A DNA stretch of 64,000 nucleotides, taken from positions 1 through 64,000 of the IMG/VR virus record IMGVR_UViG_3300014205_000002; one strand, 5' to 3'. This document shows, piece by piece, positions 7,108-55,785 of this stretch. The notes beneath the pieces were generated by a model, which saw only the letters and a list, made by a program, of their open reading frames with translations, was not told the DNA's origin and searched no databases. Position 1 is the stretch's first letter, and each line of letters opens with the position of its first letter. Made by a program: the position numbers and the translations under genes. This stretch comes from a virus. Its lineage: Duplodnaviria; Caudoviricetes.

Positions 7108-9305
7108 TGGATACCCGGCATGTCTTTGAGCGCTCGTTTGACGCGCTGATGCAGAACCCGCGCGCGAACGACTCCGCGATCCGTCGCCAGGTGCTGGGGG
7201 AGTTCGAGGACATCCCCCAGCCCGCTAAGCCGCCCGAGGGCAAGGCCGACTACCCCAAGGCGATCGGCCCTGATGAGGCGCTGCATCGCGTCATGGCGAG
7301 CAAGAACCATCAGCACAACCTTTCTGCGATGCCGCCCGCCGAGCGCAAACAGTGGATGGACATGTACGCCCACCGCTGGCTGGAAGGTCGGCACTTCACC
7401 CTGGTCGACCTGGCCCTGGAAAAGCTCGACCGCAAGGCCTTCGACCTCGACGAGCAGAAGGTCCAGAGCCTGGTCGACAAGCCGCCGAAGGACGACGGCA
7501 ACTTCCCGATCGTCAGCGGCTTTGATAAGAACGAGGGAGCCGAGCACGTCATCCTGGATGGCAACCACCGGGCCGAGGCGGCGATTCGCCGGGGAGACAA
7601 GACCATGCGCGCCTATGTTCGCGACGACCTGATCGAGGGCGGTGGCGCGTTTGCCGAGACCTGCGCCAAGGTCGCCTTCGACTTCCTCAAGGGCCTGGTG
7701 CCCGCCGCCAAAGCCCACATCAACTACATCGCCGCGACTGCTGGCGAGGCCCGCGCCCATGAGGTCGCGGACCTTGCGCACCACATCGTTGAGGGGCGCA
7801 AGAACCGCAAGGACAAGCGGGTTAAACTCAACGACGTCCTGGCCGTCCACCGCCAGGCCATGCTGAGCAAGAACGCCGCGCTCCTGCAAGCCGAGGACCT
7901 CGACGCCATGGCCGGCAAGGCTGACCTCCTGCGAGAGGTCGAGGCAATTCATGGGGGATGCGTGGCGGACCATGCCGCAGAGCTGGCGGGCGATGGCCCA
8001 GTCACGCGCGAGCATATCCAGACGGCCTGCTTCGCGAAAGCCGATGCGCCCAAGCCTGGCGAGAAGGGCTACTCGGACTACTTCTCCCGCGTCCTGAAAG
8101 AGAAGCTCGGCCAGAGCGAGAAGACAGCCGCGCTATTTGATCTGCCCGGCGTGGCTGAAGAACGCCAGCACCATGCTGACGACATTCGCCGCCATGCCGA
8201 AGCTTTAATCGCCTCTGATGCCAAATTCAAGGGGCACACGGCCGAGGTGGACGCAAACCCAGTGCGCATCCTCGGACTGTGGCACAGTCGCAAGCCGCGC
8301 TACTTTATTGACGTCAACATCAAGGATCCGGAGGGGAAGGCCATAACCGCCCCCGCTGGCGACGTCATTCAGCCAGGCCTTTCACTCACAATCGATCCCG
8401 ACAAGAGCTATCTGGATGGACTTAGCATTGCACCAGGGTTTCATGGGCGCGGCTATGGTGCGGCGTTGATGGGGATCTCCGAACGTCTGGCTTCCGATTC
8501 GGGCACCAAGCGCATCGGCGCGCATTCCGTCAACCCGATCTCCGCGCGCATGGCGCTCGGGGCTGGCTACCAGGTAGTAGGTCGACCAGAGGTGAAGGCA
8601 GAGCACATTCATATCGAGCGTGACAAGGGCCAAGAGTGGGACCTGGAGCGTCCAAACACCAGTCGCGGGCCGATTGGCCATGTGAGCGAAGGCCGCGAGA
8701 ATCCGTTCTCCTTGCTCACGCCCATCCGGAACCACTGGGGGCGCACGGCGGAAAAAGCGGCCGCAGACGACAGCGAGCGCCCCACCGTGTTCCTCGGCGG
8801 CAAGGTCTCTGGGCCTGACGGCAACTGGCGCAAGTCGATCGCCGACGGCATCCGCGACGCCGGCTGGGATGCCATCGACCCGAAGAAGAAGACCTGGACG
8901 CCCGAGAAGGACATCTACAAGGAGGTCGAGGGCATGCTCAATGCTGACCTGGTGGTATTCCATGAAGGCGGTACCTTCACGAAGCGTGAGAAAAAGCTCC
9001 TAGACGCTGTGGGCAAGCCCTACACCGAGGTCGATACCCCCGACGAGGTGCGCGAGCTCGTGGGCGACCCAGCGACCGCAGGCATGCTCGCCAAGGCCGC
9101 CTTCAATGCATCCTTGATCGTCGATCCGATCCGAAAGTTTACGCCCTCGGTATTCCCCCAAGACGCATTCGGTCACCCCATCACCAGCCTGCGCGCGGCC
9201 GCCGCCGGGGACAGCGCCATGCTGATCCTGCTGCGGCGCATCCGCGAGAACCCTGCCGACTTCCATGGCATCATCGCCCTGAACGCGATGCTCGCCGCCC
9301 GCTAA
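7107..9305 (+). CDS. polyvalent protein: ParB/Srx-like + GNAT acetyltransferase + nucleoside 2-deoxyribosyltransferase-like domains
   Basis: ILDGNHRAEAA (ParB-like); IAPGFHGRGYGAALM (GNAT motif A); VFLGG...WR...IDP...EVEGMLNADLVVF (NDT-like). Confidence 0.75.
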   Translation: MDTRHVFERSFDALMQNPRANDSAIRRQVLGEFEDIPQPAKPPEGKADYPKAIGPDEALHRVMASKNHQHNLSAMPPAERKQWMDMYAHRWLEGRHFTLVDLALEKLDRKAFDLDEQKVQSLVDKPPKDDGNFPIVSGFDKNEGAEHVILDGNHRAEAAIRRGDKTMRAYVRDDLIEGGGAFAETCAKVAFDFLKGLVPAAKAHINYIAATAGEARAHEVADLAHHIVEGRKNRKDKRVKLNDVLAVHRQAMLSKNAALLQAEDLDAMAGKADLLREVEAIHGGCVADHAAELAGDGPVTREHIQTACFAKADAPKPGEKGYSDYFSRVLKEKLGQSEKTAALFDLPGVAEERQHHADDIRRHAEALIASDAKFKGHTAEVDANPVRILGLWHSRKPRYFIDVNIKDPEGKAITAPAGDVIQPGLSLTIDPDKSYLDGLSIAPGFHGRGYGAALMGISERLASDSGTKRIGAHSVNPISARMALGAGYQVVGRPEVKAEHIHIERDKGQEWDLERPNTSRGPIGHVSEGRENPFSLLTPIRNHWGRTAEKAAADDSERPTVFLGGKVSGPDGNWRKSIADGIRDAGWDAIDPKKKTWTPEKDIYKEVEGMLNADLVVFHEGGTFTKREKKLLDAVGKPYTEVDTPDEVRELVGDPATAGMLAKAAFNASLIVDPIRKFTPSVFPQDAFGHPITSLRAAAAGDSAMLILLRRIRENPADFHGIIALNAMLAAR

Positions 9306-43517: not shown

Positions 43518-44126
43518 GTGTCAGCCGTGTCTACACGTATGGACAATCTCATGAGTGCCTGGAGTTGGTGGCTGCGCTGCCTGGGTCTCGTTGGCTACAT
43601 GGCGTTCGTGTTCGCGATCGCGCCGGCCAGCGCGACCGCGGCCCGGCCGATCCACAGCAGCGGCGTCGTGATCGATACGGTCGCAATGGGCGTACATGAC
43701 GGCGACACCTTCACGATCAACCTCTACGGTCTGGTCGATCATGTCCGGCTCTGGGGCGTGGATGCGCCGGAGCTGGCTCAGGCTCCCTGGGGGAAGCGTG
43801 CGCGCGACAAGCTGGCCGCGCTCGTTGGTCGCCAGGGCGTCCGGGTCGAGGTGCGCAGCGCGGCTCGACCTCGGGACGGCTACGGGCGCATCCTCGCACT
43901 GGTGTACCTGCCGGACGGCACCTGCGTGCAGCACGAGCTTCTGAGGGAAGGCCTCGCGCTCACCGCCGACTACGGGGACGCGCTCCCCACCTGGGACACC
44001 ATGTGCCTGCTGGAAGACTCGGCCAAGCGCTTACGTAAGGGGGTATGGGGCGATCCCTTGTTCGTGGTCCCCAAGGCCTACCGCCGCAACCACGGCGTCG
44101 GCCGCCTCGTGGGTGGCAACCACTAG
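43518..44126 (+). CDS. thermonuclease (SNase-like) with N-terminal hydrophobic segment
   Basis: DGDT, VRLWGVDAPE, DGYGRILA, LLREGLA, KGVWG; start uncertain. Confidence 0.9.
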   Translation: MSAVSTRMDNLMSAWSWWLRCLGLVGYMAFVFAIAPASATAARPIHSSGVVIDTVAMGVHDGDTFTINLYGLVDHVRLWGVDAPELAQAPWGKRARDKLAALVGRQGVRVEVRSAARPRDGYGRILALVYLPDGTCVQHELLREGLALTADYGDALPTWDTMCLLEDSAKRLRKGVWGDPLFVVPKAYRRNHGVGRLVGGNH

Positions 44127-44384
44127 GCTCTCGGGGACCGCATGAACCTGGACGGTCGCGAGGTCGTCGCTGAGGTAAGCCAGCAGAAGCGCCAGTTCCC
44201 TGAGTGCCGTCTTCGCGGTCTCGATATGAACGGGGTCTACCAGAACCGGTAGACCCCGTTCAGCCAGGTACGCGCGGAAGGTCTCGACGTCGGAGACCGT
44301 GTTGACCAACTCCAGATAGCAGCCATTCATGCTGTGACGCAAGAAGGTTTCGCTCTTGGGGTTGAAGATGTGTTCTTTGTTCAT
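44031..44384 (-). CDS. hypothetical protein
   Basis: GAGG RBS; 3' end overlaps the convergent nuclease gene. Confidence 0.45.
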   Translation of the reverse strand: MNKEHIFNPKSETFLRHSMNGCYLELVNTVSDVETFRAYLAERGLPVLVDPVHIETAKTALRELALLLAYLSDDLATVQVHAVPESLVVATHEAADAVVAAVGLGDHEQGIAPYPLT

Positions 44385-44411
44385 GGTGCCTCGTGGGTTA
44401 AGTCATCCGCG

Positions 44412-44420
44412 TGTTATGAT
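44412..44420 (+). promoter_or_regulatory. extended -10 promoter (TGnTATGAT), probably leaderless
   Basis: TGTTATGAT is followed 6 nt later by ATG 44427; no SD. Confidence 0.5.
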
Positions 44421-44426
44421 GTCGTC

Positions 44427-45191
44427 ATGATTGACGACGAGACCATCATCAAGGCCTACCTGTCAGGCCTGAGCATCCTGGACACGGCGCGCGAGACCGG
44501 CGCGTCCAAGTGGATGGTTGAGAAAACATTGAAGGCTGCGGGCGTGATGCGCGGTCTCTCCGAGCAATATGCCACCGGTGCATCCGCCTCCGGGAAATTG
44601 ATCGGCCGACCAGCGAAAGAGTTGCCGGAGGGCACCCTGGAAGAGATGCTGCGGCTTTACGATGGCGGCAAGAGCGCCAAGGCGATCGCAAAAGTGATTG
44701 GGATCGATCACCACCGGGCCACGGATATCATTCGTGAAGCAAAGGGCCTGACGTCCTTAAAGAAAGGGGGTTACGGGTGTGGCGGCCTCAAGCCCGGCGC
44801 GATCAAGCGCAAGGCTGTCGGTGGCGATCTGCGCCAGTGCGCCGACTGCAAAGTCGAGAAGCCGTTGGGAGAGTTCAGGAAAAACGGAACGCGCGTCGGT
44901 GGTCTCGCTATTTACTGCAAGCCTTGTTTCTCTGAACGCAGTAAATGGGTTGGCATGAAAGCACTCTACGGCGTCTCGCGAGAGCAGTTTGAAGACATGC
45001 TGCGGAAGCAAGAAGGCGTCTGCGCAATATGCCATAAGCCATGCAACTCAAAGCGCCGGCTATCGATCGATCATTGCCATGCGACCGGGAGAATAAGGGG
45101 ACTGCTTTGCATTAACTGTAACCATGGTCTCGGCCACTTTAAAGACAGTGTTGAATTATTAACAAATGCGCGCGACTATCTATCAGTGTGA
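44427..45191 (+). CDS. endonuclease VII-family (His-Me) putative homing endonuclease with N-terminal HTHs
   Basis: CADC...YCKPC; QEGVCAIC...IDHCHATGRIRGLLCINCNHGLGHFKD. Confidence 0.85.
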   Translation: MIDDETIIKAYLSGLSILDTARETGASKWMVEKTLKAAGVMRGLSEQYATGASASGKLIGRPAKELPEGTLEEMLRLYDGGKSAKAIAKVIGIDHHRATDIIREAKGLTSLKKGGYGCGGLKPGAIKRKAVGGDLRQCADCKVEKPLGEFRKNGTRVGGLAIYCKPCFSERSKWVGMKALYGVSREQFEDMLRKQEGVCAICHKPCNSKRRLSIDHCHATGRIRGLLCINCNHGLGHFKDSVELLTNARDYLSV

Positions 45192-45194
45192 AGG

Positions 45195-46805
45195 TTAAAT
45201 CTTTCCTGTTCGATGTAAAGTAAGAATTAAATTTGCGTACACTGCACAGTGAGCGAAATCGTCCGGGCTATCATCTGAATGGTCGTATTTAAACTTATCA
45301 TTGTTGTTTCTGTCTTCGATCGGTTCTTCTCTGATACACAGAATCATATCCGCGAACAACTTGAAGAACGACCAATGTGGAAACCAGTATTTCAGCGTGC
45401 GCATCTTCGTGAACGTCTCGCTCATGGCTTTCGTTCTATTGACCTTCCAGAGCCGCGAGTTCGGATCCCAGTGGGTCAGTTCATGCTGCTCGGAGACGTA
45501 CATGAACATGTGAACCGGCATCTTGATCTTCGCCTTGAGCAGCTCAGACTGGAGCAGGCCCGCACCCCAGTCGACGCCCACGTGGGTGACGCAGAAGTCC
45601 CGGATCTTGAGGGCGATCTCGTCGATCTGCTGGAAGAGGTCGGGGTTCGTAAACTTGTGGATGTAGATGGCCTGGAGCCTGTCGTCTCGGGTCAGCCCCC
45701 AGATGGCGAGCACGGTGAACGAGCGCCTGGCGGTCAGGCCCCAGTCGACAGTGGCGTAGATCGCAAGGAAGTCGTCGCGGCCCGGCATGAAGTAGTCGTA
45801 TGGCTCGAATTCGGGCTCGCAGCAGGCCTTGAGGTGATCCTCGTCGAGGATCGAGATACCGGAGCCCGCCGCCTGGCCCATCACCTCATTCAAGAACGTG
45901 ATGTTGTCGGCGTTGTGCAGCTTCCAACAGATCTTTGCCCACTTCTCCTCGTACTCGGTGTGACCGGGCATGATGATCTGCGGAATGCGGAAGCCGATCC
46001 ACTCCTGATCGAGCCCGGCCATCGCGCGCCAGTAGCCGGCCCGTACGTCGCAGACGGCCTTGCAGCGCTTGCAGCAGAAGCCCTTGAGCTGGATGTTCTC
46101 GATCGCCGGTAGGTTGTGGTGACCGCTCGGACAGATCACGATCCACTCGCACTGGCTGGAGCGCCGGAAGGTCTCCTCTAGCACGTTGCCCTTGGTCTTG
46201 GCCGTGCCCGTGCGCAGGATAAATTGCATGTCCGGCTTCTGGCCCGAGAGCGACTCCTCGACGATCGCGAGGTCATCGCTGACCATGTCCTGAACTTCGT
46301 CTTCAAGGATGCGGTTGGCCGACAGGCCGCGCAGGCTTTCTAGCTGGGAGGTCGCGCCGAAGTACATGACCGAGCCGTTGACGAAGCTGCGGTCGGTGAC
46401 GTTCTTGCGGCAGTTGTTGTCGACCCACCAGTTCTTCACGTCCGGCGAGGCGATGATCTTGCCGATATTCTGCGAGTAGCGGCGCATCTGCATCAGCGAC
46501 GGCAGGACGGCGATCGACTCCCAGTGATGCGAGCCGAGACACTCGGCGGTCTGGAAGTTCCGGGCCGTGACCGACTTGCCGACCTGACGCCCCGAGCAGA
46601 TCACGGTGTACTTCGCGCTGACGTTGTAGATGTCGGCGAACGGCGGATGCTCGTCCAGCGAAAAGCTTTCGCCCTTCAACTTGAACATCGACTCGGCGAT
46701 CGTTTGCTTGTTCGTGATGATGATCTGGCGACCATCCTGGTCAGTCGAGACCAGGGCCGGCCGGCCGTGTTCGTCGCGTATCAGAACCGGCGTGGATGCA
46801 CCCAT
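45195..46805 (-). CDS. terL: terminase large subunit
   Basis: Walker A GRQVGKS, LRGLSA, Walker B DEVQD, GTAK, nuclease VDWG and DDFAH; AGGGAG RBS. Confidence 0.85.
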   Translation of the reverse strand: MGASTPVLIRDEHGRPALVSTDQDGRQIIITNKQTIAESMFKLKGESFSLDEHPPFADIYNVSAKYTVICSGRQVGKSVTARNFQTAECLGSHHWESIAVLPSLMQMRRYSQNIGKIIASPDVKNWWVDNNCRKNVTDRSFVNGSVMYFGATSQLESLRGLSANRILEDEVQDMVSDDLAIVEESLSGQKPDMQFILRTGTAKTKGNVLEETFRRSSQCEWIVICPSGHHNLPAIENIQLKGFCCKRCKAVCDVRAGYWRAMAGLDQEWIGFRIPQIIMPGHTEYEEKWAKICWKLHNADNITFLNEVMGQAAGSGISILDEDHLKACCEPEFEPYDYFMPGRDDFLAIYATVDWGLTARRSFTVLAIWGLTRDDRLQAIYIHKFTNPDLFQQIDEIALKIRDFCVTHVGVDWGAGLLQSELLKAKIKMPVHMFMYVSEQHELTHWDPNSRLWKVNRTKAMSETFTKMRTLKYWFPHWSFFKLFADMILCIREEPIEDRNNNDKFKYDHSDDSPDDFAHCAVYANLILTLHRTGKI

Positions 46806-46881
46806 GGGGCTCCCTTGTAGATGCGCCTCCGAAGTGGTAGCTTGGTACTGCCAGTTTAGCATACGAGCAGGAGGAACCCCC

Positions 46882-47328
46882 ATGGGATTCGAGCTTCCGA
46901 CCGTCCAGGGCCCGCGCAATCGCACCGGCGAGCTCAAGCCCAATGGTCTTTTCGTCAGGCAGCATGCCAAGTCTCGCGTCAACGAGACGATCCCCTACGA
47001 GAACATCAAACGTGTGATCGGCACGGACAAGGACCTCGAAGTGATCTTTCACGACGGCGTCATCGACCCCGAGACGCAGGCGGTACGCAAGCCGATCGTC
47101 TTTGCGATCATGGAAGGCTCCAGTCACCAGATTCTTGACATGGAGAAGTTCATCGAGGGCTACGTGCTCGCGCAGAACCGCGGCAAGATGGACGAGCACG
47201 GCGAGGCGATCGTCGGCATCATCACGCAGCGCGCCAGTGCGCTGGAGAAGGAAGTGGTCTCGCCGTGGCCCGAGTTCGACATGGATCGCGTGCAGAACCG
47301 CCTCGACAACGCGTTCAGCTTCGCCTAG
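46882..47328 (+). CDS. hypothetical protein
   Basis: AGGAGG RBS; divergent from terL. Confidence 0.65.
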   Translation: MGFELPTVQGPRNRTGELKPNGLFVRQHAKSRVNETIPYENIKRVIGTDKDLEVIFHDGVIDPETQAVRKPIVFAIMEGSSHQILDMEKFIEGYVLAQNRGKMDEHGEAIVGIITQRASALEKEVVSPWPEFDMDRVQNRLDNAFSFA

Positions 47329-47398: not shown

Positions 47399-48160
47399 AT
47401 GAACAACATCCGACCCGATCTGGACGCCATGGCCCGCGAGATTGCATCCGCGCCACTTGCATCCAACCGTGACCTTGAGGACGCGATCACCAAGATCGCG
47501 TCCGAGCGGGGTCTGTCGGCCGGGGTGATTCAGGCGCTCACGCCGCTGGTGAACCGGCATGTATACAAGCGCGCGATGCTCGATGGGCGCAAGGACGAGT
47601 CTCCGCTCGCCGACGCCGGGGCGATCTTGCACCGGATGCGCCCCGCTGCCACCAAGTCCGCCGCAGCGACCGCAGCTCCCACGGGCTTCGGCTCGGGCGG
47701 CATCGGCGTCGGCGGACAGTTCTCGGGCGCACCCAAGCCGCTCAATGTCGGCCCGATGATGACGGCCAAGTACGCGAGCCAGGAGCGCGGCCTGGAGACG
47801 GAAGTCAAGGGCTTGAACGCCCAGGTTCGCCAGGGCAAGCAAGAGATGATCGGCCTCGCCAAGTTCGCGCGGCAGGTCGGCCTGGTCGGCACCGCTGGCT
47901 TCGACGACCTGATCGCAGCCCAGCCGGAGTACGCGCAGTCGCTCATGCGCGAAGCGGTTGAGAAGTGTGCGGCCACGGTGTGGCCGTACTCGCCCGAGCA
48001 GCTCAAGCTCTACCTGCCCACCGCGATCGCGCAGATCGAGAAGATGGCGGCGATCGCGGGCTCGATTCACGACTCCGAGGTCGCGATCCTCGACGCCAAG
48101 GAAAAGCTCGACCATGTCCGTGCGGAGTTGGGCGTGTTTCGTGGAGGGTATCGCCTGTGA
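47399..48160 (+). CDS. putative prohead core protein
   Basis: Six K-x-A sites; helical composition. Confidence 0.65.
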   Translation: MNNIRPDLDAMAREIASAPLASNRDLEDAITKIASERGLSAGVIQALTPLVNRHVYKRAMLDGRKDESPLADAGAILHRMRPAATKSAAATAAPTGFGSGGIGVGGQFSGAPKPLNVGPMMTAKYASQERGLETEVKGLNAQVRQGKQEMIGLAKFARQVGLVGTAGFDDLIAAQPEYAQSLMREAVEKCAATVWPYSPEQLKLYLPTAIAQIEKMAAIAGSIHDSEVAILDAKEKLDHVRAELGVFRGGYRL

Positions 48161-48594
48161 GCTTCAACAAGGAAGCCTTCTGGGATCGCATTGCCGCTGG
48201 CGTCAAGGCTACGCTCAGTCAGCCAAAGATGCAGACCCAACTCGCGGTAGCGGCCGGCGTTGGCGCATTCGGTCTCGGCCAGATGGCCATGGGTCGGCTC
48301 GCCGAGCATCGCTCCTACAATCAGATGCTCGATCTCTACCCCGAGCTCAAGCGCGAGAACCCCGAGCAGGTCAAGCTCTACTTCGACACGATCCGCTCCT
48401 CCGCCCCCGGGCTCGCGAGGCAGCCGCTGGTCGCGGGCTCCGTGGTCAAGCGACTGGTGAACTTCGGCGGATTCGATCATGCCGTCTACAAGGATCTCCT
48501 CTCCGCCCAGAGCGTCATCAACGGTAACTCGGGCCACTTCGGCGAGCAGTTGCTGGGCCTCAACAAGACCGTCAACTCAATGCTCTCTCCCTAG
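48157..48594 (+). CDS. putative head-associated protein with one hydrophobic helix
   Basis: GTGA coupling and GGAGG RBS; NKEAFW near the start. Confidence 0.65.
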   Translation: MSFNKEAFWDRIAAGVKATLSQPKMQTQLAVAAGVGAFGLGQMAMGRLAEHRSYNQMLDLYPELKRENPEQVKLYFDTIRSSAPGLARQPLVAGSVVKRLVNFGGFDHAVYKDLLSAQSVINGNSGHFGEQLLGLNKTVNSMLSP

Positions 48595-48630
48595 CGTCCG
48601 CATCCCCAAAGCCCACCCACCCGGTCTCCC

Positions 48631-48637
48631 TATAATA
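48631..48637 (+). promoter_or_regulatory. TATAATA phage promoter
   Basis: CCCTATAATAC about 32 nt before ATG 48670. Confidence 0.75.
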
Positions 48638-48669
48638 CGGGTAGACAAGCGTCCACTCAGGAGGAAACC

Positions 48670-49152
48670 ATGTCCGCATTTGATCTGTTCATGACGATCC
48701 AGAATAAGAAGGCGAACGAAGCCGTCGGTGCCGGCTCCGTCGGCAACGGTCCCCAGAACATGGGGATGCAGGATTCTGACCCAGCCACCGCAACCAACAG
48801 CGCCCTCTCGGCCCAGCGCGCCGCAGCCTCGGCCGCACCGGTCGGCGTCGGCCTGGAGCCGGACGGCGGCATGGGCACAAACAAGTCTATCCCAACGGCG
48901 ATGCCTGGCCAGAACCTGTTCCAGGCCGTCGAGCAGGCTGCCGCCACCGGCAAGGTCGCCACGATCGTCGAGTACGCCAAGGGGTTCGCCGAACAGTGCA
49001 TGAATGTCAACATGCAGAACTACGCGAACACCAAGTCGGCATCGAGCGCCGAGCAAAACGCCTGGTTCGACAAGCTGGCTTCGAGCACGATCGAGGACGG
49101 CTACGAGATGGGCCGTCGTTTCGCGCTCCAGCGCCTGGCCGGCAAGGCGTAG
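48670..49152 (+). CDS. putative prohead core/internal protein
   Basis: AGGAGG RBS; MSAFDLF tag; KKA, KVA, KSAS, KLAS. Confidence 0.7.
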   Translation: MSAFDLFMTIQNKKANEAVGAGSVGNGPQNMGMQDSDPATATNSALSAQRAAASAAPVGVGLEPDGGMGTNKSIPTAMPGQNLFQAVEQAAATGKVATIVEYAKGFAEQCMNVNMQNYANTKSASSAEQNAWFDKLASSTIEDGYEMGRRFALQRLAGKA

Positions 49153-49169
49153 GCGTCAATCCGTCATGA

Positions 49170-49193
49170 GGGGCGGCGGGCAACCGCTGCCCC
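49170..49193 (+). other. GNRA-capped intergenic hairpin
   Basis: GGGGCGGCGG-GCAA-CCGCTGCCCC directly before the AGGAG RBS. Confidence 0.55.
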
Positions 49194-49206
49194 AGGAGTT
49201 TTCACG

Positions 49207-49860
49207 ATGCAGAAGCCCACGATCGGGGTCATCGCGCTCGCGGCGGCCGCCAAGGCCGCCAATGTCGGCGATCCCTACGATCAGATCGTCAACCCCGTCG
49301 CGAACACCGCTTCAACAGCGGCTCGCCATGCGGTGACGGGAGCTGGCATCGGGACCGGCCTCAGCACAGCCCTCGCGATTGCGACCAAGGGAAAGAAGAT
49401 CGGCATGCCCGGCATCGGCACCGCCGCCGTCGCCGGCGGCACGCTGGGCGGCATCTCCGGCGTGCATAATTCAAACCAGCATCGCCGCGAGGCCATGCTC
49501 CAGATGGGCATCCCCAAGATGGCCGGCCTGCTCGCGCTCGCAGCCACGGCCAAGAGCGCCGGCATGTGGGACGAGGCCGCCCGCGGCTGGAAGGCCTTCG
49601 ATTCGCGCCTCGTCCATGTGGGCACGGGTGTGCGCCGGGCGACGGAGATGGTCGGTGAAGGTCTTGAGAGCGTCGGGCGCGCCGGCACGGCGCTCAAGGG
49701 CGTGGGCGCGCAGATGAACGACCAGATCGCTGGCCGCATCGCCACCGGTGCCGCCTGGACACTGGGGATCGGTGCGGTCGCGAAGAACGTGGCCGAGCAG
49801 AAGATCCTCGACGAGCAGATCACCGCCCGCCGCCGCCAGGCTGCGGCCTACTACGGGTAG
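49207..49860 (+). CDS. glycine-zipper putative internal head protein
   Basis: Two LALAAxAKxA units each followed by G/A-rich helices. Confidence 0.65.
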   Translation: MQKPTIGVIALAAAAKAANVGDPYDQIVNPVANTASTAARHAVTGAGIGTGLSTALAIATKGKKIGMPGIGTAAVAGGTLGGISGVHNSNQHRREAMLQMGIPKMAGLLALAATAKSAGMWDEAARGWKAFDSRLVHVGTGVRRATEMVGEGLESVGRAGTALKGVGAQMNDQIAGRIATGAAWTLGIGAVAKNVAEQKILDEQITARRRQAAAYYG

Positions 49861-49866
49861 GCCGCC

Positions 49867-51252
49867 GTGGGCGAGTGGCAGGAAAAGATCATCCCATCGG
49901 GTGATCGCACATTCTTGAACGAGGGCGAGCAGCGCGTGACGCCGCTCGTGTCTTGCCACGGCCGCCTTGAGATCGACGATCGACGCGGGCGCACCAAGGT
50001 CGCCGCCGCCGAAGAGGCGCTTGAAGCCGCCGCCAAGATCACGCCGGTGGCCGGCCGCGTCTACATCCTAAACGTGGCGCTGGGCTCGTTTGAGTTCTGG
50101 GGCGACAACAACAACGGCGACGCCTTCCCCGAAGCCGGCCTCCTGGGCCTGCCACCGGCGGACGTGCCGATGTCGTTCTTCGACCGCCTCGCCGCACGCA
50201 TGAAGGGTAAGGACTGGGGGCACAAGACCTTCCTGAACGGCCACACCTTTGAGGAGCACCGGAACACCGATCCGTCACTCGCGATCGGCGGCATCGCAGG
50301 CACCTACTGGAACGATCGCATGCACCGCTGCGAGAACATCCTCTGGATCGACCGCAAGAAGGGTGCGAAGTGGGCCACCCGTATCGACGCCGGCGAGCCG
50401 GTCGGCACCTCAATGGCCTGCAAGATCCCCTTTGATCGCTGTTCGCGGTGCGGCAACCTCGCGGTCACCCGCGTGAGCTACTGCCAGCACCTCAAGCCGG
50501 GCATCAACTCCCAGAACCGTCACATCCTCGCGGACGGCCTGCGCGTGTGCATGATGAACGACTTCCCCTGGTTCTTCGACGACTCGATGGTCGAGAACCC
50601 CGCTGCCCCAGAGGCCCTGACGCTCATGAAGATCGCGAGTGCGCCCGCCGTCCCCGCCAAACGCGCCGAACTGACCAAGGACACGCCGGACCTCCCCAGC
50701 GACGTGATGGCCGACGAGGAGGCCCTGGCCCTCTATGACGCCGAACAGCGGCTGCCGATCGAAGCCCTCGCAAAGCTCGCGGGCCTCGGCCTGCCGTCGA
50801 TCCTGGAGGCCAGTGAACGACTAGGCATGGCGCTGCGCCCGAGTGAAGTCTTCGCCCTGCACTTCGGCCTCAAGTACGCCAGCGACGACACCATTGACCT
50901 CGATCGGCTCGCGGTGCGCCGCCCGGTTCGATACGATGACGTCGATCTCTCTGCGCTCAAGTCCGCAGGCCAGCCACTTGCCCCCAGCTGGGACTTTCGC
51001 AAGGTCGCGCGGGCCCAGGCGCTGCTGGCCCCCTTCGCGCCCAGCCGCTCCTATCTACCCGAGCACCTGGTCGGCCGGCTTGTCCGGCTCGCGAAGTCTG
51101 CCGCCAGACTTTCTCCGCCGATCATGAGCGAGCGCGCCGACAGCCAGCTCGCGATCTACCACGCGCTTTGCAAGCTCGCATCGGGTCGCGTCGGCGTCGC
51201 CAGGCCGAATGCGGCCGCGATCACGCGCCTGCTCGCCGAGGGGCCAGCATGA
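49867..51252 (+). CDS. putative prohead maturation protease with Zn finger
   Basis: NNNGDAF, EEH, TSMAC...CSRC...YCQH, DDSMVENPA; located upstream of the capsid genes. Confidence 0.7.
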   Translation: MGEWQEKIIPSGDRTFLNEGEQRVTPLVSCHGRLEIDDRRGRTKVAAAEEALEAAAKITPVAGRVYILNVALGSFEFWGDNNNGDAFPEAGLLGLPPADVPMSFFDRLAARMKGKDWGHKTFLNGHTFEEHRNTDPSLAIGGIAGTYWNDRMHRCENILWIDRKKGAKWATRIDAGEPVGTSMACKIPFDRCSRCGNLAVTRVSYCQHLKPGINSQNRHILADGLRVCMMNDFPWFFDDSMVENPAAPEALTLMKIASAPAVPAKRAELTKDTPDLPSDVMADEEALALYDAEQRLPIEALAKLAGLGLPSILEASERLGMALRPSEVFALHFGLKYASDDTIDLDRLAVRRPVRYDDVDLSALKSAGQPLAPSWDFRKVARAQALLAPFAPSRSYLPEHLVGRLVRLAKSAARLSPPIMSERADSQLAIYHALCKLASGRVGVARPNAAAITRLLAEGPA

Positions 51253-51551
51253 GCCGGCCCTACGACGCCTTCATGGCGCACATGAAGCGCGCCGCCGACG
51301 AGGAGGCCAGCCTGGCCGCCTACTTCCAGCGCAGCAAGGGCGAGCTGGCGCACAACGCCACCAGCAATGTTCTCTACGGACTCCTTAGCAACCCCCGCGG
51401 GGGCGGCCCGGTGTCCGTGATGGGGGCCAGCGCAGGGGGCGTCATCGACGGCCTGCTGTTCAAGCCCATGGTGGACGCCACCGCCCACGCGATCGGCAAG
51501 GGCCTGGCCCTGGTCGACCGCAACCGATCCCCGAAGCCAGACGCCCTATAA
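51249..51551 (+). CDS. small tagged putative internal head protein
   Basis: ATGA coupling; MSRPYDAFMAHMKRAA. Confidence 0.65.
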   Translation: MSRPYDAFMAHMKRAADEEASLAAYFQRSKGELAHNATSNVLYGLLSNPRGGGPVSVMGASAGGVIDGLLFKPMVDATAHAIGKGLALVDRNRSPKPDAL

Positions 51552-51553
51552 TA
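51547..51553 (+). promoter_or_regulatory. TATAATA phage promoter
   Basis: CCCTATAATACC, overlapping the upstream TAA. Confidence 0.75.
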
Positions 51554-51577
51554 CCTTCAAGGGAGGACACGACCGCC

Positions 51578-52063
51578 ATGACGACCCTCAATATCGAATC
51601 GCTGATCAATCAGATCACCACGAAGCGCGCCAGCGAGGATTCCGCCGCCGCCCCTGCGGCCCCTGCGCCCGCAGATACCAGCACCCCCCAGAAGCAGGCC
51701 TCGGTTGACCTCGGCACGCCCGAAGGTCTCAAAGCCAGCATCGACGCACTGTCGCCCGAGGTGAAGGCGGCCTGCATGGTCGAAGCGCTCACCATGCTCC
51801 AGGCCGACGACGCCCGCCTGGGCCTCGCCACCGCTGTCGGCGAGAAGTCCGCTGGTCAGACGGTCGACTTCCAGACGCTGACTGCCGAGGAGAAGGCATC
51901 GTTCGAGAATGCGTTCAACGACCACAGCGCCAAGCTTGCGTCGGAGAACCCAGACTACGCCCTGTTCCTGAATATCGAAGCCGTCAAGATGGCTTTCGAT
52001 CAGGGCGCAGAAGACGCCGAGCAGGAGGTCCTCAAGCGGGCCTCCGAGAAGACCGGCCAGTAG
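51578..52063 (+). CDS. putative scaffold/core protein
   Basis: GGAGG RBS; acidic; 7 of 10 Lys are in K-x-A. Confidence 0.7.
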   Translation: MTTLNIESLINQITTKRASEDSAAAPAAPAPADTSTPQKQASVDLGTPEGLKASIDALSPEVKAACMVEALTMLQADDARLGLATAVGEKSAGQTVDFQTLTAEEKASFENAFNDHSAKLASENPDYALFLNIEAVKMAFDQGAEDAEQEVLKRASEKTGQ

Positions 52064-52086
52064 GCCGGGCGCGAAGGAGAACCCCT

Positions 52087-52431
52087 ATGTCCGCTTTCGA
52101 TCAGTTTTTCAATGGCATCACCGCTGCGCCCGCAACGCCCGCCGTCAAACAGGCCGCCGAGACCCAGGTCAAAGTAGCCTTCGACTCGCCGGCGGAAGAG
52201 GCCTTCTGGGAGGGCCTCGCCAGTGGCGACAAGCAGGCGGCCCGCTCCGGCGACGACACCATCGCCGCCAAGGACCTGTTTGAGGACATCTTCGACCTCC
52301 ACACGACCAAGTTGGCGTCAACCAACCCCGAGTACGCCCATGTCCTGCGCGTCCTGGCCGTGAAAGAGGCCTTCGAGGCCGGGCACGACGAGACGATAGC
52401 CTCGGCTCAGGCCGTCGGCATCGTCCAGTAG
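52087..52431 (+). CDS. putative scaffold/core protein, paralogue of 51578-52063
   Basis: AAGGAG RBS; MSAFDQF tag; 5 of 6 Lys are in K-x-A. Confidence 0.7.
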   Translation: MSAFDQFFNGITAAPATPAVKQAAETQVKVAFDSPAEEAFWEGLASGDKQAARSGDDTIAAKDLFEDIFDLHTTKLASTNPEYAHVLRVLAVKEAFEAGHDETIASAQAVGIVQ

Positions 52432-52441
52432 GGGCGCGCCG

Positions 52442-52735
52442 ATGAAAACCTGGCAGACCGATGTCGACGACCTGCGAAAGCAGGCGTCTGACAAGATGCG
52501 GGAAGCCGCAGACATACTCGCGGTCGCCAGCCAGGAGAAGGCAGCGAGCCAGGACGAGTCCGATCGGGCGATCATCGACAAGAAGCTCGCCTCGATCTAC
52601 ACGAACCTGCTCTATGCGGATCTGGCGAAGACGGCAACCGAGGCCATCAAGTCGGCCAGGCAGATCCCCGCTGCCGCCCCCGGCATGGCCCATGCGGGCC
52701 TGGTCGCCCAGGCTCTACTCTTGAGGGCCGTCTAA
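52442..52735 (+). CDS. putative core protein
   Basis: MKTWQ start; 5 of 8 Lys are in K-x-A. Confidence 0.65.
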   Translation: MKTWQTDVDDLRKQASDKMREAADILAVASQEKAASQDESDRAIIDKKLASIYTNLLYADLAKTATEAIKSARQIPAAAPGMAHAGLVAQALLLRAV

Positions 52736-52737
52736 AC

Positions 52738-53241
52738 ATGGATCGCGCGACCAGTCACTGGCTCGCCAAGGCCGCCGAGGCACTCGCCCCGGCGGTCGAT
52801 CCTGCCTGCACGGCTGCCGACGCGCTGACGCTGATCGCCTACGGTGAGATCGCCAAGCGCGCGGCGATCGATCTCGGCAACGAGATCGAGCATCCTTTTA
52901 AGCGCTACTGGCTCCACCGGGTCGGCGGAGCCGCCGCAGGCGCTGCGGCCGGAGCTGGCGTATCAGCGCTTGCGGGCAGCCGAGGCCTGGCCCTGGTGCC
53001 CGGCGCGCTCGCCGGTGCATTCGTGGGTGAAAAGGGCGGGGAGATCAAGAGTCTCGCCAACCACGCCCGTGCGGTCGATGAACTGGAACTTTCGGGGCAC
53101 CATGTGCCGGATGCGGTACGCCATCCCCACCTCTATGGGACCGTGGCCCACCATGCGGCCGTTCGCGGAATGAAAGATCGCGTCGCAGCCGCCCAGGCGA
53201 TGATGCTGTCCGCCATGCCGATCGAGCCCCCAGCGCCATGA
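52738..53241 (+). CDS. glycine-zipper protein, paralogue of 9316-9888
   Basis: HPF...GGAAAG...HARAV...VRHPH. Confidence 0.65.
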   Translation: MDRATSHWLAKAAEALAPAVDPACTAADALTLIAYGEIAKRAAIDLGNEIEHPFKRYWLHRVGGAAAGAAAGAGVSALAGSRGLALVPGALAGAFVGEKGGEIKSLANHARAVDELELSGHHVPDAVRHPHLYGTVAHHAAVRGMKDRVAAAQAMMLSAMPIEPPAP

Positions 53242-54191
53242 TCAACCCGCAGATGCACCGTGCCATCGTCCGGCCCGAGAACAGCAGCCTGATCCTCGGG
53301 GGTCTGCATCACCTGGCGTCCGGTGCCGCCAAGCTTGTCGGCAAGGAACTGCCAAAGCATCTCGACCCCGCCGAACTGGGGGCCGCTGCCGCACGCGGGG
53401 CGGAGCGGATCGACTTCCATGCGGGACGTGCGGCCCAGTCGATCGCGCGCCACGCCGGCCTGGATGCGCATCTGCCCAAGGGGCTGTTCGCGCGCAGTGA
53501 ACAGGCCACTCTGTCGAGCAAGCGGATCCGCGCCCTGGGCGACGAAATAGACGGCCTGCGCACCACCGATGCGACCAAGGCTAAGGCCCTTGAGGACGAT
53601 CTGAATACGCTCGTGAAAACTCACTATAATAAGGGCGAGACCTTCCAGGGACTGCGGGACTTGGCGAGCGACGACTCATTCGCGGCAACGCTCCACAACG
53701 TGGAGGTGCCAAGCCTCACCGGCGAAGCCGGCAAGATGGTCAAGAACGTCGGAACCGACGTCGCCGCCATCTACGGAGCGGGTGAGATCACCGAGAAAGT
53801 TCGCCAGGCCCGTGCATCTGGTTCCGGACCGACCAATCTCCCATCGCGAGGGAAACCCGATATGACTGATTCCTACGCCAAGGCCGCGACCCTCATGAAA
53901 GAGGCCGCCGAGCTGTTTGATGCCGCATCCGTGAAGGAGCGTGCGTGCAAGCAGGCCCAGCAGCTCCTGGACGAGAGCGCGATCGATGCGGGGGAGTTCC
54001 CGAAGTATGCGGCACTGTTTGAAAAGCAGTCCGCGGAGGACGCCGACACGATGGTTGCGGGGATGCTCCGCGGCCATGCGGGCTCTAGCAAGAGCGCGAG
54101 TTTTGGTGATCCCGTTCCCATTTCCGATGCTCAGGCCGAAGGCGGCCAAGGCCGCTTTGAAGCCCTGTGTCGGTCGAAGGCCGGCCACTGA
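53238..54191 (+). CDS. putative scaffold protein, likely with an internal start at 53862
   Basis: ATGA coupling; the C-terminal 109 aa are helical and K-x-A rich with their own RBS. Confidence 0.6.
   Translation: MINPQMHRAIVRPENSSLILGGLHHLASGAAKLVGKELPKHLDPAELGAAAARGAERIDFHAGRAAQSIARHAGLDAHLPKGLFARSEQATLSSKRIRALGDEIDGLRTTDATKAKALEDDLNTLVKTHYNKGETFQGLRDLASDDSFAATLHNVEVPSLTGEAGKMVKNVGTDVAAIYGAGEITEKVRQARASGSGPTNLPSRGKPDMTDSYAKAATLMKEAAELFDAASVKERACKQAQQLLDESAIDAGEFPKYAALFEKQSAEDADTMVAGMLRGHAGSSKSASFGDPVPISDAQAEGGQGRFEALCRSKAGH
53826..53837 (+). promoter_or_regulatory. GG[AT]CCGACCAAT operator-like motif
   Basis: Upstream of in-frame ATG 53862; leader similar to 63565-63599. Confidence 0.45.
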
Positions 54192-54249
54192 CCCGCTCTA
54201 GCGAGCAACCCCACAACCCTGCATTCCCACTGATTCAAGGAGGACCCTG

Positions 54250-54801
54250 ATGTCTGCCATCAGCTTCGGCACCCCCGGCATGCCCAAGAAGACTTTCAAG
54301 GACGGCGGATTCGATCTGCTGACCTCGCCCCTCGCGAAGGTGCCCTGCAAGCTCGCGCCGTCGGCTCTCGTAGCCCCGCTCGCGATCAAGGATGGCCTGT
54401 TCGTCGCGCCTTCGGCGGTCGTCGGCGAGGAGGGCCACTTCGTACTGGCCTCGGACGCCGAGCGCTCGCTCTACCTGGTCTTCACCGGGAACACCCAGGT
54501 GATCCTCGGCAACCCGTTGCCGACGGACAACTACCCCGGCGAGGAGCGGACCGATACCGTCACCGGTATGCTCGGCTCCGTGGTCGGAATTTTCCCGGCT
54601 GATCGTCTGACGATCGGCCTCGTCGGCGGCGCTGCCGTCGCGCTGAGCACGTATGCCGCCAACTTGCCCCTCACGGTCAAGAACGGCAAGCTCTGCCCAG
54701 CCAACCACGGCACCAACACCGGCGAGCGGGTGGTGGCCTATGTCGAGTTCGATTCCGCCCAGATCGGCGACAACTCGATTCAGGTCCGGACGCTCGGCTA
54801 A
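54250..54801 (+). CDS. putative capsid decoration/cement protein
   Basis: AAGGAGG RBS; beta-rich 183 aa directly before the MCP. Confidence 0.55.
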   Translation: MSAISFGTPGMPKKTFKDGGFDLLTSPLAKVPCKLAPSALVAPLAIKDGLFVAPSAVVGEEGHFVLASDAERSLYLVFTGNTQVILGNPLPTDNYPGEERTDTVTGMLGSVVGIFPADRLTIGLVGGAAVALSTYAANLPLTVKNGKLCPANHGTNTGERVVAYVEFDSAQIGDNSIQVRTLG

Positions 54802-54831
54802 CCCCCCACCCGCATCAACAAGGAGACCGTG

Positions 54832-55785
54832 ATGTCTTTCGCGAATACCAGCGCATCCCCGAACCCCATGGATGCGCGCATGATGAACCAGGGCTTCCTG
54901 AACCTGGTCAAGGAAGGCCCCGACGGGGTCAAGCAAGCTGCAACGGGCATCAACGAGGACATCATCCTCACGACGCTCCGTGAAGACGGCATCGCGCGCC
55001 GCGTGATGCCCTTCGCCCCGATCACCGCAGATCAGCTCGTGGTGGACATCAATAATCCTGATGTCCCAATGACAACAGTACCAGTGGAACCCTCTTTTGG
55101 CGAGTATATCGCCATGGCCGTCGACTACATGCAGGCGTCGAAGGATCTCTGGTTCCGCACCCAGGTCGCTCCCGTCTACTTCAAGCCGATCAAGACGAAG
55201 ACCCTCAAGATGCACGAGGCGCAGCTCCTGGCGTCGCCTTTCCCCATCAAGACCTTCATCGAGTCGGTCGCGCGCAACGACATGCTCGCCGTCGAGGACC
55301 ACTTCCTGATCGGTGCCATCGAGCGCTGCGTCGCGAAGTACGCCGCGACGAACAACATCAGCTCGCTGGGCACCCTCGACAAGGACCACATCGCCGACGC
55401 CACGCAGGCGATGGTCAACAACCGCCTGTCTGCGGAGATGATTCTTGTCAATGAGGTAACTTACCTCGATATTTTGCGCTGGAAGTCCGATACGTACGGT
55501 AGCCATGTTGTCAAAGACCTGGTCGACTTCGGACCCAAGGGCGAGGCCCTCAAGTACAAGTCGTGGATGGGCTTCCGCTGGATCCTGACCAACAACCAGG
55601 ACATCATCGCGAAGGACACGCTCTACTACCTCCCCTCCCTCAAGTACCTCGGCATCGCGTACATGTTGGCGGATGCGGAACAGTGGATCGAGTACCGCGA
55701 CGGCGTGCTCAGCACGAACACCCGCGAGATCATCGGGCGCAACCTGGTGAACGCCCGTGCGCCGATCAAGCAGAACCTGACCTAA
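54832..55785 (+). CDS. major capsid protein (presumed HK97 fold)
   Basis: Position after protease/scaffold/decoration genes; LREDGIARRVMP, ILVNEVTYLDILRW; strong RBS; stem-loop follows. Confidence 0.75.
   Translation: MSFANTSASPNPMDARMMNQGFLNLVKEGPDGVKQAATGINEDIILTTLREDGIARRVMPFAPITADQLVVDINNPDVPMTTVPVEPSFGEYIAMAVDYMQASKDLWFRTQVAPVYFKPIKTKTLKMHEAQLLASPFPIKTFIESVARNDMLAVEDHFLIGAIERCVAKYAATNNISSLGTLDKDHIADATQAMVNNRLSAEMILVNEVTYLDILRWKSDTYGSHVVKDLVDFGPKGEALKYKSWMGFRWILTNNQDIIAKDTLYYLPSLKYLGIAYMLADAEQWIEYRDGVLSTNTREIIGRNLVNARAPIKQNLT

Follow-up and report, generated by a model that had tools for sequence, protein, structure and literature searches.

Prohead proteases determine which proteins of the phage head stay, which are trimmed, and which are removed. 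The fold class considered here is that of the prohead serine proteases, grouped in MEROPS clan SH (families S21, S77, S78, and S80), and several of its members obey short sequence rules. Gp21 of phage T4 cuts at L/I-x-E and the phiKZ enzyme at S/A/G-x-E (PMC5694885), while the SPN3US enzyme recognizes A-x-E and prefers Ser at P1′, the position directly after the cut (PMC5694885, PMC10052503). Proteases of this type also cleave their own C-termini (PMC5694885, PMC10052503). The herpesvirus assemblins, which are fused to the scaffold, cut after Ala and usually before Ser or Thr, for example at YLQA-T and VQA-S in pseudorabies virus (PrV; PMC4498786). The present analysis deals with a short motif of another kind, Lys-x-Ala (K-x-A), which is concentrated in the head operon of the uncultured phage represented by IMG/VR record IMGVR_UViG_3300014205_000002. 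This genome has 208,264 bp and a guanine-cytosine (GC) content of 64%, and its first 64 kb form the stretch of DNA that was analyzed, referred to as the window. Judged from the sequences, the extended form of the motif, [L/M/I]-x-K-x-A-[S/A/G], is probably the recognition and cleavage motif of the prohead serine protease encoded by the phage itself. Four observations connect the motif with this enzyme: it co-occurs with the protease family in relatives whose base composition varies widely, conserved sites flank the protease core, a positionally conserved site is found near the N-terminus of the capsid protein, and the core has the fold of T4 gp21 and the assemblins.

The frequency of the motif was evaluated by shuffling the residues within each protein, a procedure that keeps the Ala and Lys contents, and by scanning all residue pairs at spacings of 1–4 (1,600 combinations). 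In the nine head-operon proteins encoded between positions 47399 and 54191 (the head set; genes are named here by their first position), 49 K-x-A were observed against 18.7 expected (z 7.9), which is the first rank among the 1,600 combinations, and K-x-x-S, i.e., K-x-A-S, reached a z of 4.9. The control pairs of the same set remained near expectation: KA (13 vs. 18.5), KxxA (18 vs. 18.6), AxK (18 vs. 18.5), RxA (20 vs. 18.2), and likewise KxxxA. Nor does the excess extend beyond the operon, since the other 49 open reading frames (ORFs) of the window contain 64 K-x-A against 72.5 expected, and the genome outside the operon 241 against 238. For the form K-x-A-[S/A/G], the operon has 31 in 1,947 residues and the remainder of the genome 59 in 55,537 residues, a roughly 15-fold difference in density. 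The original prediction, which was made from the window alone, had counted the Lys residues lying within K-x-A in the protease tail (8 of 9 from M253 on) and in genes 51578, 52087, and 52442 (Table 1), and all its counts are correct. It had also proposed a specificity unlike that of the Glu-directed enzymes. In the head set K-x-A stands first, and the 12 highest-ranking pairs include no Glu-ending pair at spacing 2.

One objection to any function of the motif is that its excess merely follows from Ala-rich composition, paralogy, or internal repeats. The operon proteins are indeed 14–25% Ala, and the products of genes 51578 and 52087 share a paralogous stretch of about 65 residues in which three sites align. 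Alanine richness was the caveat attached in advance to the original prediction, yet the excess persists after composition-preserving shuffles, is confined to the operon, and leaves the other spacings flat. The codons used at the motif Lys and Ala match background usage, so the excess is not a DNA-level repeat; the stretches between sites share no homology with each other, so it is not an artefact of tandem duplication either. Internal repeats were also sought in the product of gene 47399 and none were found. To this are added the behavior of low-GC relatives, which have fewer Ala and show the same excess, and the better conservation of the motif residues in comparison with other Lys and Ala, both described below. 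As far as computation reaches, the shuffles, the low-GC relatives, the conservation, and the non-homologous fragments refute a functionless by-product, which we consider extremely improbable.

The protease has cultured relatives in Salmonella phage Arash (gp222, 37% identity), in Vibrio phages D69, D181, and D148 (38–39%), and in Bacillus phage G (gp19, 28%), together with about 20 metagenomic homologues; Arash gp222, D69 VPHD69_0270, and phage G gp19 match it at E-values of 1e-10 to 9e-30. When the same pair scan was applied to the head modules of Arash and D69, K-x-A came first in both (39 vs. 17.7, z 5.8, and 44 vs. 16.5, z 7.4, respectively), and a weak excess is present in the head proteins of phage G besides gp19 (20 vs. 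11.2, z 3.0). Among 24 IMG/VR loci retrieved with the protease alignment, whose GC contents range from 0.36 to 0.68, K-x-A is the top pair in 12 and holds one of the first two ranks in 15. The occurrence of the same excess in AT-rich genomes with Ala-poorer proteins settles the composition caveat. In three of these loci (L022, L023, and L024; GC 0.36–0.39, protease about 23% identical) K-x-A ranks 112, 5, and 13, respectively, and the top pairs are G-M and A-x-G; this branch may follow an altered cleavage rule.

In a logo of 725 sites pooled from the relatives, considered beside the 49 sites of this phage, Lys (position 0) is preceded by L/M/I at −2 and by Glu at −1 and −3; it is followed by V/L/T/I at +1 and Ala at +2, after which come Ser at +3 and Glu at +4. 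Ser directly follows the motif Ala in 201 of the 725 sites (4.3-fold enrichment) and in 16 of the 49 (5.7-fold enrichment). The preferred residues alternate at −2, 0, and +2, which argues for an extended peptide in the groove of a protease and not for helical periodicity. Orthologue alignments from five contigs, with an overall identity of 37%, show that the motif Lys is kept in 56% of the comparisons vs. 25% for other Lys, and the motif Ala in 60% vs. 34% for other Ala. Some sites are fixed; others are lost and then replaced nearby, as is expected if the density of sites outweighs their exact position. Two sites of gene 48670 are conserved in orthologues, as are three or four of those of gene 53238 in four orthologues. 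With regard to phage G, its portal protein gp14 (positions 7236–9182 of the phage G locus L003) carries Q-M-A-K-Q-A-A-S at residues 16–23, which fits the extended motif and suggests, as a reading of the sequence, that the portal N-terminus is trimmed, and its capsid protein gp27 has no such site.

The protease itself can be divided into a predicted propeptide, a core, and a long helical tail (Table 1). His126, His131, Ser182, Cys192, Cys195, Cys206, His208, Lys255, and Ala257 are invariant in 19 homologues; Lys44, Ala46, Ala47, and Ala438 are nearly so, and Lys436 is kept in 17 of the 19, K265 and K436 being the conserved sites of the tail. When Arash, D69, and phage G are added to the alignment, His131, Ser182, the cluster of three Cys and one His (CCCH), and both K-x-A sites flanking the core are still kept, and the sequence G-L-x-K-x-A-A at the end of the propeptide is found also in Arash gp222, D69 0270, and phage G gp19. 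Since His126 is replaced in gp19, His131 is the better candidate for the catalytic His. The residues previously read as a Zn-finger correspond to the invariant CCCH cluster, a candidate zinc knuckle. The sites that had been reported around the core, TKVAA (K44) and MKIAS (K255), were confirmed, as was VKQAA at K35 of the capsid protein. In AlphaFold models the core is confident from about residue 46 to 258, residues 1–45 and 262–282 are disordered, and the tail is helical, with most of its sites at helix ends or in loops. The limits of the confident core thus coincide with the two conserved sites, which places them exactly at the boundaries of the fold.

Compared with 48,161 PDB chains, the core model found T4 gp21 first (5jbl_A, Z 9.0, 131 residues aligned, 3.4 Å), the varicella-zoster virus (VZV) protease 1vzv second (Z 8.2), and the human cytomegalovirus (HCMV) protease after it (Z 6.3); the best-scoring unrelated fold reached 5.4. 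The full-length model gave the same fold ranking. Over the two comparisons Z was 9.0–9.2 for T4 gp21 (about 130 residues), and the PrV protease reached 8.3. On these VIA Z-scores and their ranking rests the assignment of the modelled core to the assemblin/T4 gp21-type β-barrel fold. When the protease alignment was run as a profile against PDB sequences, no match at E ≤ 1 emerged, and the only curated family that matches the protease is PHROG 18299, “head maturation protease” (E 3e-4). By linear offsets in the structural alignments, Ser182 falls near gp21 Ser140 and HCMV Ser132, and His208 near gp21 Asp165 and HCMV His157. As the model stands, His208 may be the third member of the triad, a zinc ligand, or both.

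The major capsid protein is 21% identical to Arash gp226. A K-x-A lies near its N-terminus, and alignment puts one in the same column, 27–35 residues from the N-terminus, in 12 of 14 homologues (20–58% identity). This position fits a short propeptide that would be removed at maturation. A second K-x-A of this protein, at residue 170, lies inside the fold and is not conserved.

The spacing of the sites is also informative. If cut at each site, the product of gene 47399 would give pieces of 34, 25, 29, 38, 31, 34, 26, and 36 residues, and the longest predicted piece would be 29 residues for gene 51578, 26 for 52087, 25 for 52442, and 38 for the protease tail. A longest fragment of 25–38 residues in these five substrates has a combined P of 7e-9 against random placement of an equal number of sites; for gene 47399, 20,000 random placements never kept all fragments to ≤38 residues (P < 5e-5). 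Long site-free pieces are found in other products of the operon, namely residues 1–214 of 53238, the last 125 residues of 52738, and stretches of 82–99 residues in 48670 and 49207, which resemble portions kept after trimming.

Within a cleavage code, the exact bond that is cut has to be placed. By analogy with the known enzymes it most likely follows Ala, with a hydrophobic residue at P5, Lys at P3, Ala at P1, and Ser at P1′, because the rules of T4, phiKZ, and SPN3US all read P3-x-P1, because the herpesvirus assemblins, which are structural relatives, cut after Ala before Ser/Thr, and because the Ser enrichment directly follows Ala. A cut after Lys would convert the motif into [L/M]-x-K followed by x-A-S, that is, a charge-reversed copy of the T4 [L/I]-x-E rule. 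It would reproduce the hydrophobic-x-charged format of gp21 (PMC5694885), and the data give it some credit, as hydrophobic residues are enriched 2–3 fold at the second position ahead of Lys and MxK or LxK are top-ranked pairs in several relatives (L009, L010, and L016, and LxK with z 4.7 in Arash). Nonetheless, the K-x-A signal is stronger than that of [LM]-x-K in nearly all genomes, and a near-obligatory Ala at P2′ followed by an enriched Ser at P3′ would be without precedent in the protease clan. Moreover, Ala at P1 with Ser at P1′ is the herpesvirus rule, and SPN3US gp245 prefers Ser at P1′. Taken as a whole, cleavage after Lys appears improbable; granted that the motif is a cleavage code, it is the less probable of the two placements.

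The motif could also have nothing to do with cutting. K-x-A-S might be a binding or targeting tag, for instance for the contact of the scaffold with the capsid shell or the portal, or a helix-end (N-cap) signature. Capsid-targeting sequences adjoin the cleavage sites of T4 internal proteins and offer a precedent for a tag, and the location of most tail sites at helix ends or loops, as well as the fact that Ser followed by Glu is a common helix start, would suit a cap. Such a cap, however, needs no Lys exactly three residues ahead of Ser. Nor would it be limited to one operon of a 208-kb genome, follow one protease family across GC contents of 36–68%, or fall exactly at both limits of the protease core. 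Moreover, sites are so evenly spread in five proteins that none of these has a long site-free stretch, as breakdown into small peptides would demand. These explanations are considered quite unlikely, more so than a cut after Lys.

Several points weigh against the proposed cleavage code. No mature N-terminus or cleavage product is on record for this phage or any relative; in the case of Arash, the virion proteome paper and its supplement, which consist of coverage values and a feature table only, yielded none, and the phage G genome paper, which names gp19 a head maturation protease, reports no cleavage sites. Coverage of Arash gp221, gp223, and gp224 reached 100% in the particle preparation, a poor fit with complete removal, it being understood that the purity of that sample is uncertain and that coverage argues against removal only if mature virions alone were present. 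Concerning the enzyme, no Pfam-A family matches it at E ≤ 0.01, and the Foldseek E-values are weak (0.055–0.07) even for the isolated core, with the same proteins on top. The placement of His131, Ser182, and His208 is a prediction from alignment offsets, the offset of His131 fitting gp21 His85. The three distant relatives L022–L024 show a weaker K-x-A excess. Finally, some K-x-A lie inside folded cores (K165 and K168 of the protease, K170 of the capsid protein) and are probably not cut, which means that the motif alone is insufficient.

With these points taken into account, the computational results support the original prediction that K-x-A is recognized by the head protease, that core proteins are degraded, and that the enzyme processes itself, and from them we infer actual cleavage. 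The following sequence of events can be proposed. The protease would be co-assembled into the prohead and would free its own core by cuts at K44-V-A46 and K255-I-A257. It would then chop its helical tail and four small scaffold/core proteins (47399, 51578, 52087, and 52442) to peptides of ≤38 residues, which could exit the shell. The retained proteins would be trimmed, with the loss of about 37 residues from the capsid protein, of the N-terminus of 52738, and of the C-terminal 100 residues of 53238.

How this system relates to the known ones can now be specified. T4 gp21 (PDB 5jbl; MEROPS S77) is the best structural match and is likewise encoded in a head module. In common with gp21, phiKZ gp175, and SPN3US gp245, the enzyme studied here has a short motif of the P3-x-P1 type, repeated many times in scaffold/core proteins and present once near the capsid N-terminus (by prediction), carries sites in its own C-terminal tail, and would prefer Ser after the cut. 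The gp21 group cuts after Glu, whereas the motif here contains Lys and Ala and no Glu; further differences are the lack of detectable sequence similarity and the presence here of the invariant CCCH insertion and of a helical tail of 200 residues. The second-best match is the assemblin precursor of herpesviruses (pUL26 of herpes simplex virus and PrV, pUL80a of HCMV; MEROPS S21), with Z-scores of 8.2 for VZV and 8.3 for PrV. As in that precursor, the protease is fused to a putative C-terminal assembly domain, with a predicted release site right after the core, and the catalytic Ser (a candidate in the phage) is followed some 26 residues later by a His (H208 here, His157 in HCMV), so that a Ser-His-His triad is possible. 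Unlike the herpesviruses, which have two or three sites per precursor and a hydrophobic P3, this phage would use Lys at P3, a hydrophobic residue at P5, and dozens of sites in about ten proteins; its host is a bacterium, and the cut after Ala is in its case a prediction. The true homologues are phage G gp19, Arash gp222, and D69 VPHD69_0270, which share the His, the Ser, the CCCH cluster, and both flanking K-x-A sites. The K-x-A excess recurs in the head modules of Arash and D69, and gp19 has no long tail. No cleavage specificity is on record for any of these three proteins.

The features on which this description is based are collected in Table 1. The head operon is encoded on the plus strand, downstream of the terminase gene, from position 47399 to the major capsid protein gene. 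The protease gene is located within this head-morphogenesis module, upstream of the capsid protein gene, in an order identical to that of Arash and D69.

Table 1. Coordinates of the genes and protease parts discussed in the text (pLDDT, predicted local distance difference test; pTM, predicted template modelling score).
Feature	Position	Strand	Remarks
Large terminase	45195-46982	minus	PHROG 675, E 7e-43
Candidate scaffold/core substrate, 253 residues	47399-48160	plus	7 K-x-A sites; predicted fragments of 25-38 residues
Head protein, 160 residues	48670-49152	plus	4 K-x-A sites; central 82-residue stretch site-free
Gly/Ala-rich head protein, 217 residues	49207-49860	plus	3 K-x-A sites vs. 2.2 expected; alone not enriched
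Prohead protease gene, 461 residues	49867-51252	plus	11 K-x-A vs. 2.7 expected; N-terminal propeptide, core, and helical tail
Predicted N-terminal propeptide of the protease, residues 1-46	49867-50004	plus	Ends T-K44-V-A46, then A47; pLDDT <50 for residues 1-45
Protease core, residues 47-257	50005-50637	plus	Ends M-K255-I-A257, then S258; model pLDDT 87.5, pTM 0.83
His131 codon, candidate catalytic His	50257-50259	plus	Invariant
Ser182 codon (T-S-M-A-C), candidate catalytic Ser	50410-50412	plus	Invariant
C192-x2-C195 ... C206-x-H208 cluster, candidate zinc knuckle	50440-50490	plus	Invariant
Helical C-terminal tail of the protease, residues 258-461	50638-51249	plus	8/9 Lys in K-x-A; predicted fragments ≤38 residues
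Candidate scaffold/core substrate, 161 residues	51578-52063	plus	7/10 Lys in K-x-A; predicted fragments ≤29 residues
Candidate scaffold/core substrate, 114 residues	52087-52431	plus	5/6 Lys in K-x-A
Candidate scaffold/core substrate, 97 residues	52442-52735	plus	5/8 Lys in K-x-A
Head protein, 167 residues	52738-53241	plus	Two N-terminal sites (K11, K40); 125-residue C-terminal part site-free
Head protein, 317 residues	53238-54191	plus	Residues 1-214 site-free; five sites crowd residues 215-287
Major capsid protein, 318 residues	54829-55785	plus	Predicted maturation site V-K35-Q-A37, then A38 (bases 54931-54939); PHROG 2522 “major head protein”

Searches of Pfam and PHROG with the ten operon proteins gave almost no matches: apart from the protease and the capsid protein, the products of the operon have no match in these families, and the putative substrates are orphans. 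Orthologues of the portal and scaffold, sought by BLAST of Arash gp218–228 against this genome, were not found. Two small plus-strand ORFs of the operon with uncertain starts, 47965–48594 and 51168–51551, fall outside the gene filter used here. Each has one K-x-A, namely F-N-K-E-A-F in the former, which resembles the S-K-E-A-F-F-N site of Arash gp219 and D69 0267, and H-M-K-R-A-A in the latter. In the window, GC drops to 0.56 between positions 44001 and 46000, compared with about 0.64 elsewhere, and a Cys/His-rich ORF (44334–45191) within this low-GC stretch converges on the 3′ end of the terminase gene.

In the rest of the genome, an orphan ORF of 386 residues (73025–74185, minus strand) has 14 of its 20 Lys in K-x-A against 3.0 expected (binomial p 4e-8). 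No other single gene of the genome has so strong an excess, and there is no further strong case beyond the head operon. Its product, which has no PHROG match, may be an additional substrate of the protease, for example an internal head protein encoded elsewhere. The PhoH-like gene at 69509–70243 has a mild excess (p 0.013) that was taken as chance.

Literature searches, with many subscription papers beyond their reach, found no paper that connects a K-x-A motif or an Ala-Ser rule with prohead or maturation proteases. To our knowledge, the only sequence rules for large phages end in Glu (T4, phiKZ, and SPN3US). The proposed K-x-A code would be another specificity within a known type of enzyme and not a new kind of system. 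It would be a second rule, Lys-x-Ala, in a wide and almost unstudied clade that includes the cultured phages G, Arash, and Vibrio D69, and is testable at once on existing phage stocks. Such a rule would let one predict from sequence where the mature capsid, scaffold, and internal proteins begin and end, would guide the building of cryo-electron microscopy models and mass-spectrometry searches, and would offer a concrete test of how substrate specificity evolved between the capsid proteases of phages and herpesviruses. One may tentatively speculate, with rather more doubt than confidence, that the protease lineage found in phage G, Arash, Vibrio D69, and many uncultured jumbo phages retains the working mode of the herpesviruses, with fusion to an assembly domain, release after the core, Ala-Ser cleavage, and perhaps a Ser-His-His triad, and that it has added Lys at P3 and uses the rule wholesale to shred a multi-protein core. 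If this is true, the protease lineage would be the closest counterpart of assemblin in viruses of bacteria, and for an entire clade of jumbo phages the proteome of the mature head could be read from sequence alone.

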